Shown: positions 2,880 through 9,071 of the stretch, in pieces
How the letters are laid out: the number at the start of each line of letters is the position of its first letter
How positions within the stretch are numbered: position 1 is the first letter of the stretch
NCBI GenBank assembly: GCA_965612865.1
Contig: CBFDTJ010000027.1
Coordinates: 1 to 17,211 of the forward strand
DNA: 17,211 bases
Origin: an uncultured bacterium
GTDB taxonomy: Bacteria; Caldisericota; Caldisericia; B22-G15
Direction of reading: 5' to 3'
Translations under genes and position numbers: made by a program
The notes under the pieces: generated by a model
Database searches by the model: none
Told to the model about the DNA's origin: nothing
What the model saw: the letters and a program-made list of their open reading frames with translations, nothing else

Positions 2880-4979
2880 ATGAGAAAGGTCAGAAAGAGG
2901 GATGGTTCAATTGTAGATTTTGATGAGTCAAAGATAAAGAGGGCAATTTTTAATGCATTAGCCTCCACAGGGAATCCAGATATTGATTTAGCAGAGAATC
3001 TAAAGGACCAGGTGGTAGCTGTTCTTGAAAGGCTTTATGGTGATTCCAGCATACCAGATATTGAAGATATACAGGATGTTGTGGAAAAGATTTTGATGAA
3101 GAACGGTTTGGTTGATGTGGCCAAGAGCTACATAATATATAGAAAACAACATGAAGATTTAAGGGAGATAAAAAGGGTTTTTGAAAACATATATTCAATA
3201 ATAGATAACTACATTGATGACAAAGATTGGAGGGTAAGAGAGAATTCAAACATGACATACTCCCTTCAGGGTTTAAACTTTCACATCTCCTCCACTTTAA
3301 TATCAAAGTACTGGCTATCAAAGATATATCCAAGAGAGGCGGCGAAAGCTCATATAAGGGGAGATATACACATACATGATCTTGGAATTCTTGGTCCCTA
3401 TTGTGTTGGTTGGGATCTTGAAGATTTATTGAGGAGAGGTTTTGGCGGCGTTTCTGGGAAGATCTCATCAGCTCCCCCGAAGCATTTTAGATCAGCTCTT
3501 GGTCAGATAGTTAATTTTTTCTATACCCTTCAGGGAGAGGCAGCTGGTGCCCAAGCTTTCAGTAATTTTGACACCCTTCTCGCACCCTTTGTAAGATACG
3601 ACAATTTAAGTTACAGAGAGGTTAAACAAGCTCTTCAGGAGTTTCTGTTCAATATTAATGTTCCAACCAGAGTTGGCTTCCAAACACCTTTCACAAATTT
3701 AAGTTTTGATCTTTCACCCTCCCCTCTATATGTTAATAAGCATGTGGTCATTGGAGGAGAGGAGAGGAGGGAAGTTTATGGAGATTTTCAGAGAGAGATG
3801 GATATAATCAATAAAAGTTTTGCAGAGTTAATGATAGAGGGAGATAGAGATGGAAGACCATTTACCTTCCCAATTCCAACATACAACATAACATGCGATT
3901 TTGATTGGGAGAATGAGAAACTAAAGCCCCTGTGGGAGATGACAGGTAAATATGGAATTCCATACTTTGCCAATTTTGTAAACTCCCATATGAAGCCAGA
4001 GGATGTAAGAAGTATGTGCTGTAGATTGAGACTTGATGTGAGGGAGCTGAAGGAGAGAGGGGGAGGGTTGTTTGGAGCAAATCCCCTCACTGGTTCAATA
4101 GGTGTTGTAACAATCAATCTTCCAAGAATAGGGTATCTATCAAGAACCGAAGAGGAGTTTATGGATAGATTATACGAACTTATGGAGATAGGAAAGAGAG
4201 CTCTTGAGGTGAAGAGAAGGGTTGTTGAGAGATTTACAGATAAAGGACTCTACCCATACTCAAAGGTTTATCTTGAGAGCGTGAAGAGAAACCTTGGGAG
4301 TTATTGGGCAAATCACTTCTCAACAATAGGAATAATAGGTATGGCTGAAGCTGTGGAGAATTTGTTGAAAGTGCCATTTAGATCAAGAGAGGGGAAGGAG
4401 TTTGCAATTCGTGTTTTAGAGTTTATGAGGAAGACACTCCTCTCATTTCAGAAGGAGACAGGGAATCTCTATAACCTTGAAGCAACACCAGCAGAGGGAG
4501 CTTCATTTAGGCTTGCTAAAATTGATGTTGAAAAATTCCCAGATATAATTCATCAGGGGACAGAGGAGGAACCATACTATACAAACTCTGTTCACCTTCC
4601 AGTGGATACAACAGATGATATTTTTGAGATTCTTGAGTTTGAAGATGATCTTCAGGTTATGTTCACAGGAGGAACTGTCGTTCACCTCTTTCTTGGAGAG
4701 AGTATAATGGATCCAGATTTAGTTAAGATGCTTGTAAAAAAGATTGTAGAGAGATACAAGCTTCCATACTTTACAATAACCCCCACCTTTTCAATATCTC
4801 CTGTCTCAGGTTTTATACCTGGAGAGCACAGGTTTGACCCAAATCCTATACCAAGGGATCTTATAGAGAAGTATGGAGTTGTTGTGGAAATTTCTGAGGA
4901 GGAGTTGAAGAATCTTCCAGAGGGAAGTTACATATTAATTGAGGATGAGGAAAATAGAAAGTTTGATTTCTATGTTTAA
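2880..4979 (+). CDS. nrdD: Anaerobic (class III) ribonucleoside-triphosphate reductase, catalytic subunit with N-terminal ATP cone, lacking the glycyl-radical domain
   Basis: ATP cone (VRKRDG...FDESKI...EDIQDVVE), HIHDL, YCVGW, GAQA, PFTFPIPTYN, finger loop SMCCRL, EATPAEG, YYTNS, TGGTVVH and PYFTITPTFS. No RVxGY motif in this ORF. SD GGAGGA at 2868-2873. Confidence 0.95.
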   Translation: MRKVRKRDGSIVDFDESKIKRAIFNALASTGNPDIDLAENLKDQVVAVLERLYGDSSIPDIEDIQDVVEKILMKNGLVDVAKSYIIYRKQHEDLREIKRVFENIYSIIDNYIDDKDWRVRENSNMTYSLQGLNFHISSTLISKYWLSKIYPREAAKAHIRGDIHIHDLGILGPYCVGWDLEDLLRRGFGGVSGKISSAPPKHFRSALGQIVNFFYTLQGEAAGAQAFSNFDTLLAPFVRYDNLSYREVKQALQEFLFNINVPTRVGFQTPFTNLSFDLSPSPLYVNKHVVIGGEERREVYGDFQREMDIINKSFAELMIEGDRDGRPFTFPIPTYNITCDFDWENEKLKPLWEMTGKYGIPYFANFVNSHMKPEDVRSMCCRLRLDVRELKERGGGLFGANPLTGSIGVVTINLPRIGYLSRTEEEFMDRLYELMEIGKRALEVKRRVVERFTDKGLYPYSKVYLESVKRNLGSYWANHFSTIGIIGMAEAVENLLKVPFRSREGKEFAIRVLEFMRKTLLSFQKETGNLYNLEATPAEGASFRLAKIDVEKFPDIIHQGTEEEPYYTNSVHLPVDTTDDIFEILEFEDDLQVMFTGGTVVHLFLGESIMDPDLVKMLVKKIVERYKLPYFTITPTFSISPVSGFIPGEHRFDPNPIPRDLIEKYGVVVEISEEELKNLPEGSYILIEDEENRKFDFYV

Positions 4980-4989
4980 GGAGGTAGAC

Positions 4990-5139
4990 ATGCTTAAAGA
5001 GAAGAAAAAGGTGAAGGTAAAGGTTGTTCCATGTGAGGTTTATTCAAGGGTGGTTGGCTATTTCAGACCCATTAAAAACTGGAATAAGGGAAAGAAGAGA
5101 GAGTTCAAAGAGAGGAAAACACTAAAAATGCCTCAATGA
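4990..5139 (+). CDS. Stand-alone NrdD glycyl-radical domain peptide (49 aa)
   Basis: SD AAGGAGGT (4978-4985) overlaps the nrdD stop; ATG at 4990. MLKEKKKVKVKVVPCEVYSRVVGYFRPIKNWNKGKKREFKERKTLKMPQ contains the class III RNR C-terminal motif YSRVVGYxRP..WNxGK..EF..R. Its stop overlaps the nrdG start (ATGA). Confidence 0.9.
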   Translation: MLKEKKKVKVKVVPCEVYSRVVGYFRPIKNWNKGKKREFKERKTLKMPQ

Positions 5140-5825
5140 TTAAAGGTTTTCAGGGAATAAGTCTTATTGATTATCCAGAACACATAGCTTCAATAGTATT
5201 TATAGGAGGCTGTAATTTTAGATGTCCCTTCTGTCATAATATAGAGCTTGTTCTTCCTCGGGAGTTGAACAAACTCCCCACTTTGAGTGAGGAGTATATC
5301 CTTGAGGAACTTATAAGACGCAAAAATTTTATAAATGGAGTGGAGTTTACAGGTGGTGAGCCAACCCTTTATAAAGGATTAACTAAATTCCTAAAGAGAA
5401 TTAAAGAGGAAGTAAAAATTGATATAAAACTTGATACAAATGGAACAAATCCCAGTATTATTGAGGAGTTGTTAAGAGACTCTCTTGTGGATTACATAGC
5501 CATGGATATAAAGAGTTCACCAGATAATTACAATAGAGCGGCAGGTGTGAAGGTTGATATTGATGCCATTAAAAAGAGTGTTGAATTAATAAAATCTTCT
5601 CAGATTGATTATGAGTTTAGAACCACCCTTGTCCCTGACTTTGTTAAGGAAGAAGATATAGGGAAGATTTGTAGGTTTCTTGGAAATGTAAAGAGGTATG
5701 TATTACAAAGATACAGACCAGAGAAAACCTTAGATTATCTTGAAATTAAGCCGTACAAAGAAGAAGAGACGAGGCGTTTCCTTTCCCTCATTGATTGTGC
5801 CGAGATAAAATTCTTACGAAGTTAA
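5136..5825 (+). CDS. nrdG: Anaerobic ribonucleotide reductase activating enzyme (radical SAM)
   Basis: SLIDYP...GCNFRCPFCHN (CxxxCxxC), TGGEPT, LDTNG, DYIAMDIK and YEFRTT motifs. In the operon with nrdD. Confidence 0.93.
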   Translation: MIKGFQGISLIDYPEHIASIVFIGGCNFRCPFCHNIELVLPRELNKLPTLSEEYILEELIRRKNFINGVEFTGGEPTLYKGLTKFLKRIKEEVKIDIKLDTNGTNPSIIEELLRDSLVDYIAMDIKSSPDNYNRAAGVKVDIDAIKKSVELIKSSQIDYEFRTTLVPDFVKEEDIGKICRFLGNVKRYVLQRYRPEKTLDYLEIKPYKEEETRRFLSLIDCAEIKFLRS

Positions 5826-8210: not shown

Positions 8211-9071
8211 TTAGAAGTCCATTGTATACCTGGAAAACTTTATAAATTTTATGTTTTTGTTGTGAGAAGAAGCAGGGACCACAATTGTCATTGCGCTACT
8301 TTCTCTATCCAAATTTTTCACTATGCCCAGTGAAATACAAAACCTGTCCCTGTCCAGGAGAGAAATCAGAGTGCCAGGAGGCGGTATTTCATAGTCAAGA
8401 TTAATACCAAGGAGATTTTTCTCTGAAAAGATGACCTTTAAAATTTTTCTCTCTTTAAAGTACTCTTTAAATCTATTCTCTCTGTATTTAATCCTTTCTT
8501 CCCTGTTTCTTTGAGACACATATGGTGAAGGTCTAAGTCTTATTATCTCCTTCTCACTGTATAGAAATGGTTTTATAAGGTTTTCTCTTTCTTCCTTTTC
8601 TTCAAACAGGATAATAAAATCAGGATTAATTATCTCAATTTTTGCTTCCTTTAGAATTTCTGCGACAGGCCCATCCACGAGTCCTGTAGTATCAACAAGA
8701 AGATAGTCTATTCTGTATTTTTCAGATTCTTTCGTAAGCTTTTCTACTCCAATAAGCATCTGTAGAAGATGTCCCTTTGGTGAGACAGAACCGACAAAGT
8801 AGAGTTTTTCAGGCTTTATTTCACCAAGAGATTTCACCTCTTTATTTGCTAAACCAAATCCTACAGTGGTGGGAGGACCTATACTTGATTGTCCAATGTC
8901 AAAATCCAATATCCCAACTTTTTTCCCTCTCTTTAAAAGAAAATTTAGAATAAACAATAAAAAAGATGTTTTTCCAGAATCAGATGCTCCAATTACAAGG
9001 AGTTTCTTCCCCTTTCTTTCAAAAAGTTCACCTATTTCTACCCATTCCTCAGAAGGCTTTATCTCCACCAT
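8211..9071 (-). CDS. Clp1/Grc3/Nol9-family polynucleotide 5'-hydroxyl kinase
   Basis: Walker A GASDSGKT, family motif DFDIGQSSIGPP, YFVGSVSP, DTTG and an Arg-rich lid (RNREERIKYRE). Confidence 0.85.
   Translation of the reverse strand: MVEIKPSEEWVEIGELFERKGKKLLVIGASDSGKTSFLLFILNFLLKRGKKVGILDFDIGQSSIGPPTTVGFGLANKEVKSLGEIKPEKLYFVGSVSPKGHLLQMLIGVEKLTKESEKYRIDYLLVDTTGLVDGPVAEILKEAKIEIINPDFIILFEEKEERENLIKPFLYSEKEIIRLRPSPYVSQRNREERIKYRENRFKEYFKERKILKVIFSEKNLLGINLDYEIPPPGTLISLLDRDRFCISLGIVKNLDRESSAMTIVVPASSHNKNIKFIKFSRYTMDF

Follow-up and report, generated by a model that had tools for sequence, protein, structure and literature searches.

Class III ribonucleotide reductase (RNR) is the textbook enzyme that stores its glycyl radical on the catalytic chain itself. 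In the closest known systems, one-chain NrdD with NrdG (Thermotoga maritima 4COI/4U3E, phage T4 1H78, 8P23 and 9D3X), an ATP-cone, a ten-stranded barrel of the Pfam family NRDD, finger-loop cysteines and an RVxGY loop are found together with an NrdG2-type activase. All of these elements are also present at an nrdD locus in contig CBFDTJ010000027.1 (assembly GCA_965612865.1), a stretch of 17,211 nucleotides (nt) from an uncultured bacterium of the Caldisericota that is here called the window. However, in the window the radical loop is the product of a separate gene, and the NrdD body has lost its Zn-ribbon ligands and ends in an acidic tail that is absent from the NrdD profile. We consider it very likely, from the sequences and from structure prediction, that this locus encodes a functional three-component class III RNR, made up of an NrdD body, a 49-residue radical-carrying subunit and NrdG, all produced from one transcript.

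Small or divided components are known from other systems. GrcA (YfiD), the nearest functional analogue, resembles the window peptide in being a small stand-alone radical-glycine protein, and by analogy activation by the partner's activase and insertion into a large barrel protein are proposed. However, GrcA is a spare for pyruvate formate-lyase (PFL), which has its own cis radical domain, whereas the window NrdD has none, and the peptide matches the NRDD profile and no PFL-type glycyl-radical family. In the accessible part of a review on glycyl radical enzymes (GREs) from June 2026, spare-part proteins are stated to be known for no GRE class other than the formate lyases. Small subunits are recorded there solely for HPAD, BSS and MASS, and none of these subunits carries the radical. 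HPAD gamma, BSS beta/gamma and MASS beta/gamma/delta are also small proteins bound to a GRE catalytic subunit, but in the available text on them they are Fe-S or rubredoxin-like proteins without a radical, whereas the window peptide is the radical site itself. The split class II RNR of Pseudomonas aeruginosa (NrdJa/NrdJb), as far as the available part of its description goes, also has an RNR catalytic chain in two genes, but it belongs to a different RNR class and its small part has no protein radical. Full-text literature searches, covering papers available without subscription, returned no description of a split NrdD.

Organization of the nrdD locus

The split nrdD and the adjoining nrdG occupy positions 2880 to 5825 of the window, with lengths and residue positions given in amino acids (aa):

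2880–4979, + strand: nrdD body, 699 aa; TAA stop at 4977–4979; ATP-cone at aa 3–92 and NRDD barrel at aa 121–650
4011–4028, + strand: finger-loop motif SMCCRL, double-cysteine type, aa 378–383 of NrdD
4791–4844, + strand: degenerate Zn-ribbon knuckle, NrdD aa 638–655
4854–4976, + strand: acidic C-terminal tail of NrdD, aa 659–699; predicted docking strands for the peptide
4978–4985, + strand: Shine-Dalgarno (SD) site AAGGAGGT of the peptide gene; overlaps the nrdD stop and lies five bases ahead of the ATG at 4990
4990–5139, + strand: glycyl-radical peptide open reading frame (ORF), 49 aa, in the +1 frame relative to nrdD; ATG at 4990 and TGA at 5137–5139
5047–5064, + strand: radical loop RVVGYF, peptide residues 20–25; Gly23 codon at 5056–5058
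5136–5825, + strand: nrdG, radical-SAM activase, 229 aa; TIGR02495 and Pfam Radical_SAM

The nrdD stop and the peptide ATG are separated by a 10-nt gap, and the ATGA at 5136–5139 is shared by the TGA stop of the peptide gene and the ATG start of nrdG. A sequence-only reading of the window had described an NrdD that contains SMCCRL and ends at the TAA at 4977–4979 without a radical motif, and its coordinates all hold in ORF and profile checks. The ORF check also bore out its placing of the motif in a separate ORF that has its own SD overlapping the nrdD stop and an ATGA overlap with nrdG.

Two reading frames that make up one NrdD

The 699 aa product matches positions 1–521 of 562 in Pfam NRDD (PF13597) with 573.3 bits (cut-off 26.2) and positions 2–646 of 684 in NCBIfam NF006126 with 1000.9 bits (cut-off 548). 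The 49 aa peptide matches positions 533–560 and 650–682 of the same two profiles, respectively, and body and peptide together thus tile one NrdD profile. The RVxGY glycyl-radical motif is absent from the C-terminus of the 699 aa chain, as seen in both the ORF and the profile check. The cut between the two genes falls after the Zn-ribbon region and before the C-terminal radical loop, at a position where the two fused relatives in the closest set have a short hairpin.

The finger loop, from S378 to L383, is invariant in 51 homologues, and 16 positions of the peptide, including G23, are invariant across 53 stand-alone peptides. Conserved residues are also found in the C-terminal stretch of the peptide (W31, N32, G34, K35, E38, F39 and R42). 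When a profile of the stand-alone peptides was used to search the PDB, it aligned with residues 614–643 of T. maritima NrdD, though the match is weak (E 0.36) because the query is short. This alignment was used for residue mapping, and the homology of the peptide rests on the NRDD and NF006126 profile matches. In T. maritima NrdD the radical site is Gly621, according to the available part of the published description (PMC4493059). A Pfam scan of the peptide at E values up to 0.1 gave two matches, NRDD and a weak AF2212-like one, and neither is to a PFL-type glycyl-radical family. The product of the nrdG gene that adjoins the peptide gene matches the NrdG2 family TIGR02495 with 214.1 bits (cut-off 131.15).

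The NF006126 match of the body ends at 646 of 684, and the tail extends beyond the profile. In the window the acidic tail (aa 659–699) has a net charge of −7, and the tails of the split homologues are negative in 115 of 118 cases (mean −4.8), with 107 of the 118 including an acidic-x-L-xx-[Y/F]G word. What the sequence-only reading had called a remodelled NrdD tail is, from the tail charges among the 120 closest homologues, a conserved acidic module of the split clade. The N-terminal strand of the peptide (aa 1–13) is basic, with a net charge of +5, and the N-termini of stand-alone peptides are positive in 105 of 119 cases (mean +2.4).

The loss of the Zn-ribbon ligands is one of two features that set the window apart, the other being the cobalamin riboswitch described below. 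Cys or His is kept at 0 of the 4 ligand positions, where relatives show C-x2-H ... C-P-x-P-H. The same loss of ligands was found in 13 of 120 homologues, and the tree described below needs two changes to account for it.

Many close NrdD homologues (P0123, P0169, P0233 and others) are 1000–1180 aa long and include intein or LAGLIDADG Pfam domains. Judging from these domain matches, NrdD bodies of the split clade are frequent intein targets.

Integrity of the junction in independent sequencing runs

The window is part of a metagenome-type assembly of 111 contigs, representing a genome that is 87.6% complete, and an assembly or sequencing error might in principle have created both the nrdD stop and the change of frame. 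The stretch or part of it occurs in 19 listed sequencing runs, and no RNA data set is listed among them. For the junction we used Logan contigs, which are assembled and are not raw reads, of four runs from four studies, leaving out two possible source samples. Contigs spanning the junction at 4977–4990 were found in each of the four (X3, 4782–5383; X4, 4584–5129; X5, 4761–5257; X6, 4963–5078), and none of them shows a gap or a listed indel. G001, an independent genome of the same genus, shares the layout at 98% protein identity. As the contigs cross the junction without gaps while carrying strain-level substitutions, and as G001 has the identical arrangement, an error at this site has next to no probability. 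The indel over the junction that the sequence-only reading had named as the first thing to exclude is therefore excluded, on contigs from four independent runs and on G001.

Of the substitutions among the contigs, the four that lie nearest the junction, at 4928 and 4935 in nrdD and at 5013 and 5019 in the peptide gene, leave the amino acid unchanged in the assigned frame of their ORF. Contig variants were synonymous in 13 cases and non-synonymous in 4 in nrdD, and the corresponding numbers for the peptide gene were 2 and 0. Both nrdD and the peptide gene are under purifying selection.

Distribution of the split form

All samples of homologues were chosen by similarity to the window locus, and the counts given here are not a census. 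The radical motif is missing from 118 of the 120 best NrdD homologues, which share 60–99% identity with the window protein. One of the motif-less homologues, P0179, is a 690 aa protein named for Thermodesulfatator indicus DSM 15286 and encoded in a 2.3-Mb contig. When the search was limited to proteins of 26–86 aa, 485 were found to carry the motif. All 120 of these that were listed begin at a start codon (119 with Met and one with a printed Val), and some are encoded in megabase-size contigs. Within the phylum, 63 of 93 genomes include a peptide match, and 48 of the 63 matches are in frames of at most 82 aa, 14 are in frames of at least 469 aa, and one, cut at a contig start, is undecided.

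Among 80 named species loci, the split form was found in Caldimicrobium, Thermodesulfobacterium, the isolate Thermodesulfatator autotrophicus S606 (L036), Anaerolineae, Aquificales, Hippea, WOR-3, Victivallales, Elusimicrobia, Spirochaetota and Leptospirales. In some relatives the two parts are not adjacent. Six relatives that form one family have a gene of about 470 aa between them, and in another family (loci L007, L008 and L012, in G030, G010 and G014, respectively) the two are separated by a gene that we labelled thyX-like by eye from its translation. In G030 the distance from body to peptide is 6.8 kb. With the motif-less bodies among the closest homologues, the stand-alone peptides and the loci with genes between the parts, the recurrence of the split in independent genomes that the sequence-only reading had proposed to look for is established.

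A FastTree tree of 190 NrdD bodies, built after the tail columns had been taken out, requires at least 10 switches between the split and the fused state, seven of which are forced by well-supported branches. As the tree is unrooted, gain of the split cannot be told apart from its loss. The window body falls in a supported clade of three with two other split, Cys-less proteins.

Probable separate translation of the peptide

Because the two ORFs of the window are a mere 10 nt apart, and because the peptide reading frame, open from 4939, shares approximately 40 nt with the end of nrdD, programmed +1 frameshifting in 4939–4979, or slippage there at the TAA stop, could be imagined to yield a one-chain NrdD. 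However, the peptide gene has its own strong SD and ATG. Of 42 small motif frames at other loci, 36 likewise have an SD-like site 5' of a start codon, a count that is generous as the start codon was picked in favour of an SD. Where both parts are on one strand (27 split loci), the frame of the motif is the same as that of nrdD in 11, +1 in 10 and +2 in 6. Given this variation, and the whole genes that separate the parts in relatives, the family cannot be explained by any one frameshift or read-through event. The tails of the closest homologues vary in both length and sequence, and there is thus no conserved slippery site, and the junction-nearest substitutions are synonymous in each ORF's own frame. 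We therefore regard recoding as highly improbable. The contigs without an indel, the varying frame relation and the intervening genes all agree with the earlier claim that the split is not a frameshift artefact.

Predicted complex and proposed mechanism

The predicted complex of the NrdD body and the peptide scored 0.88, and the best of 3 controls scored 0.00. The complex that the sequence-only reading had suggested predicting thus passes its controls. Among solved complexes 116 of 157 attain a mark of 0.88, as do 2 of 215 mismatched pairs; these counts apply only roughly, since the prediction was made from our own alignments. Agreement between the runs is at least 97% of contacts, and the predicted local distance difference test (pLDDT) score of the partner is at least 80. 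Confident contacts join residues 636–643 and 649–653 of NrdD to residues 13–18 of the peptide. Further confident contacts involve residues 661–663, 665–673 and 683–688 in the acidic tail, the last two of these segments with the N-terminal strand of the peptide.

On this model, the basic N-terminal strand of the peptide would pair with the acidic tail strands of NrdD, and a non-covalent clamp would replace the lost peptide bond. The RVVGY loop would then enter the barrel as it does in a one-chain NrdD. NrdG, with S-adenosylmethionine (SAM), would abstract a hydrogen from Gly23, and the resulting glycyl radical would make the thiyl radical in the finger loop that starts nucleoside triphosphate (NTP) reduction. 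We infer radical formation on the peptide, the dependence of activity on it, the riboswitch logic set out below and, as an adaptive rationale, the cheap replacement of a peptide after cleavage by O2.

From the sequence comparisons, the radical peptide is probably an obligate subunit. It could instead be purely a spare part that, like GrcA for PFL, does no more than rescue an NrdD with a cis radical domain of its own. Two observations can be cited for this: a fused NrdD is accompanied by an extra small motif ORF at L079 (4147–4437) and L103 (4125–4418), both from Patescibacteria (Paceibacterota, Minisyncoccales), and four genomes of the phylum have one body and two peptide genes. However, an NRDD profile search of the window genome (87.6% complete) found only the body and one peptide, with neither a cis radical domain nor a second NrdD. 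As the genome is without another NrdD, the peptide does not serve here to replace a cis domain, and we give the spare-part explanation only a very slim chance. The extra ORF at L079 and L103 encodes 96–97 aa with a second radical motif and Cys pairs, and lies between the one-chain nrdD and nrdG. On its sequence, it is a candidate for a true spare part of a class III RNR.

A bolder proposal, which we put forward tentatively and think rather doubtful, is that the obligate peptide is also an exchangeable radical cartridge. NrdG would activate the peptide off the enzyme, charge-complementary docking would deliver it, and it would be swapped after O2 cleavage or quenching, so that the 699 aa body survives oxygen. 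If the peptide were exchanged in this way, extra peptide genes away from nrdD might be spares, hijackers or plugs, and the repeated gain or loss of the split might reflect selection for repairability, perhaps in hot, intermittently oxic habitats.

Second, unlinked peptide genes were found at L114 (G036, contig C26, 2178–2390, − strand) and L113 (G039, contig C102, 3228–3419, − strand), in genomes that each have a single NrdD body. One of these second copies reads SRVVEY, with Glu in place of the radical Gly, and is beside an integrase-like gene. The other reads SRPVGY, with Pro two residues before the Gly (RPVGY for RVVGY), and is beside phage-like genes. The labels of the neighbouring genes were taken from their translations. 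The position of extra copies beside mobile-looking genes fits mobility of the peptide gene, without demonstrating exchange.

A cobalamin riboswitch and a class II reductase in the same genome

Two further features precede nrdD:

2617–2645, + strand: promoter-like site, TTGCAA, 17 nt, TATAAT, with TG; found by consensus scan only, 10/12 matches; just 5' of the riboswitch
2650–2834, + strand: cobalamin riboswitch aptamer, Rfam RF00174; operon leader

The riboswitch matches the full RF00174 model (1–189) with 98.9 bits (gathering score 31.5) and ends 45 nt before nrdD. When 18 other loci were scanned, the same riboswitch was found 5' of nrdD in 2, namely G001 (L002) and the Anaerolineae split locus L046. 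B12 riboswitches are known to repress isozymes that do not depend on B12. The window genome also encodes an intein-containing B12-dependent class II RNR, NrdJ (contig C8, 12280–14709, − strand). Because the riboswitch leads the nrdD operon and the same genome encodes a class II RNR, B12 may switch between the class III and class II reductases of this genome, and the riboswitch would shut the nrdD operon off when B12 permits use of the class II enzyme.

The presence of NrdJ on contig C8 and the loss of the Zn-ribbon ligands could also be taken to mean that nrdD is broken and on its way out, and is tolerated thanks to the B12-dependent class II RNR. Decay is difficult to reconcile with three intact, closely spaced ORFs (a 10-nt gap, then the ATGA overlap) behind a full-length riboswitch. 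In addition, the split state is common to 118 of the 120 closest homologues, the core of the peptide is invariant in 53 stand-alone peptides, and the variants in nrdD and the peptide gene are mostly synonymous. We consider decay improbable, at most a minor possibility.

Weighing the proposed three-component reductase

Several points weigh against a functional three-component RNR. In the available part of the description of T. maritima NrdD (PMC4493059), the Zn-ribbon is described and conjectured to interact with the activase, and the window NrdD is without all four of its ligands. With a class II RNR encoded alongside, nrdD may be dispensable, and on the window genome by itself its selection could be relaxed. 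Contig variants in nrdG are 10 synonymous and 11 non-synonymous, though some of these may come from other organisms at 88% likeness. The finger loop (378–383) is outside the confident contacts of the complex model, and a position of Gly23 near Cys380/381 is unsupported by it. As one-chain NrdD structures have been solved, the pass of the predicted complex may reflect likeness to them, perhaps memory, and not binding of these two chains. Finally, the homologue samples are biased to relatives of the window locus, and the locus itself is known from its sequence and from models.

Nevertheless, the architecture of a barrel, a separate radical-Gly peptide and an activase put forward in the sequence-only reading is supported by the contigs, the homologues, the stand-alone peptides, the frame relations and the complex model, and a functional three-component class III RNR is the explanation that we favour. 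If the peptide is obligate, an essential enzyme has as its radical cofactor a 5-kDa protein that can be detached. Three questions would then become testable: how an activase gains access to the buried glycine inside the barrel, whether activation requires the radical domain to move out of the barrel, and whether RNR damaged by O2 is open to repair in the way that GrcA repairs PFL. Since cultured carriers exist (T. autotrophicus S606, L036; T. indicus DSM 15286, P0179), such experiments are feasible. The split also matters for annotation, as hundreds of these peptides are unnamed or 'hypothetical' and motif-less NrdD bodies could be misread as truncated.

Variant peptide genes and other observations

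In Elusimicrobia (L073, L084, L092 and L109), the body has a helix-like tail (...IEKQIALLEEQLYSK) and the peptide opens with a matching helix-like stretch (MTAQERKNIENKITELK...). These sequences suggest that coiled-coil docking takes the place of strand pairing in the Elusimicrobia split.

The peptide gene of L031 (G010, contig C26, 1492–2583, − strand), from a genome of the same class, breaks off at a stop directly behind the radical Gly (...EIYSRVVG). It is followed by a 265 aa frame with what by eye resembles a LAGLIDADG-type motif, and then by the remainder of the peptide (LRPVSQWNNGK...). An Rfam scan of L007, L008, L012 and L031 found no intron around the interrupted G010 peptide gene at E values up to 0.01. 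Similar end pieces of the peptide, 27–29 aa long, are present in G042, G043 and G045.

Elsewhere in the window, and unrelated to the split NrdD, the ORF at 8211–9071 (− strand) has a CLP1-type P-loop domain of the polynucleotide kinase family (PF16575) and is part of a run of small minus-strand genes.

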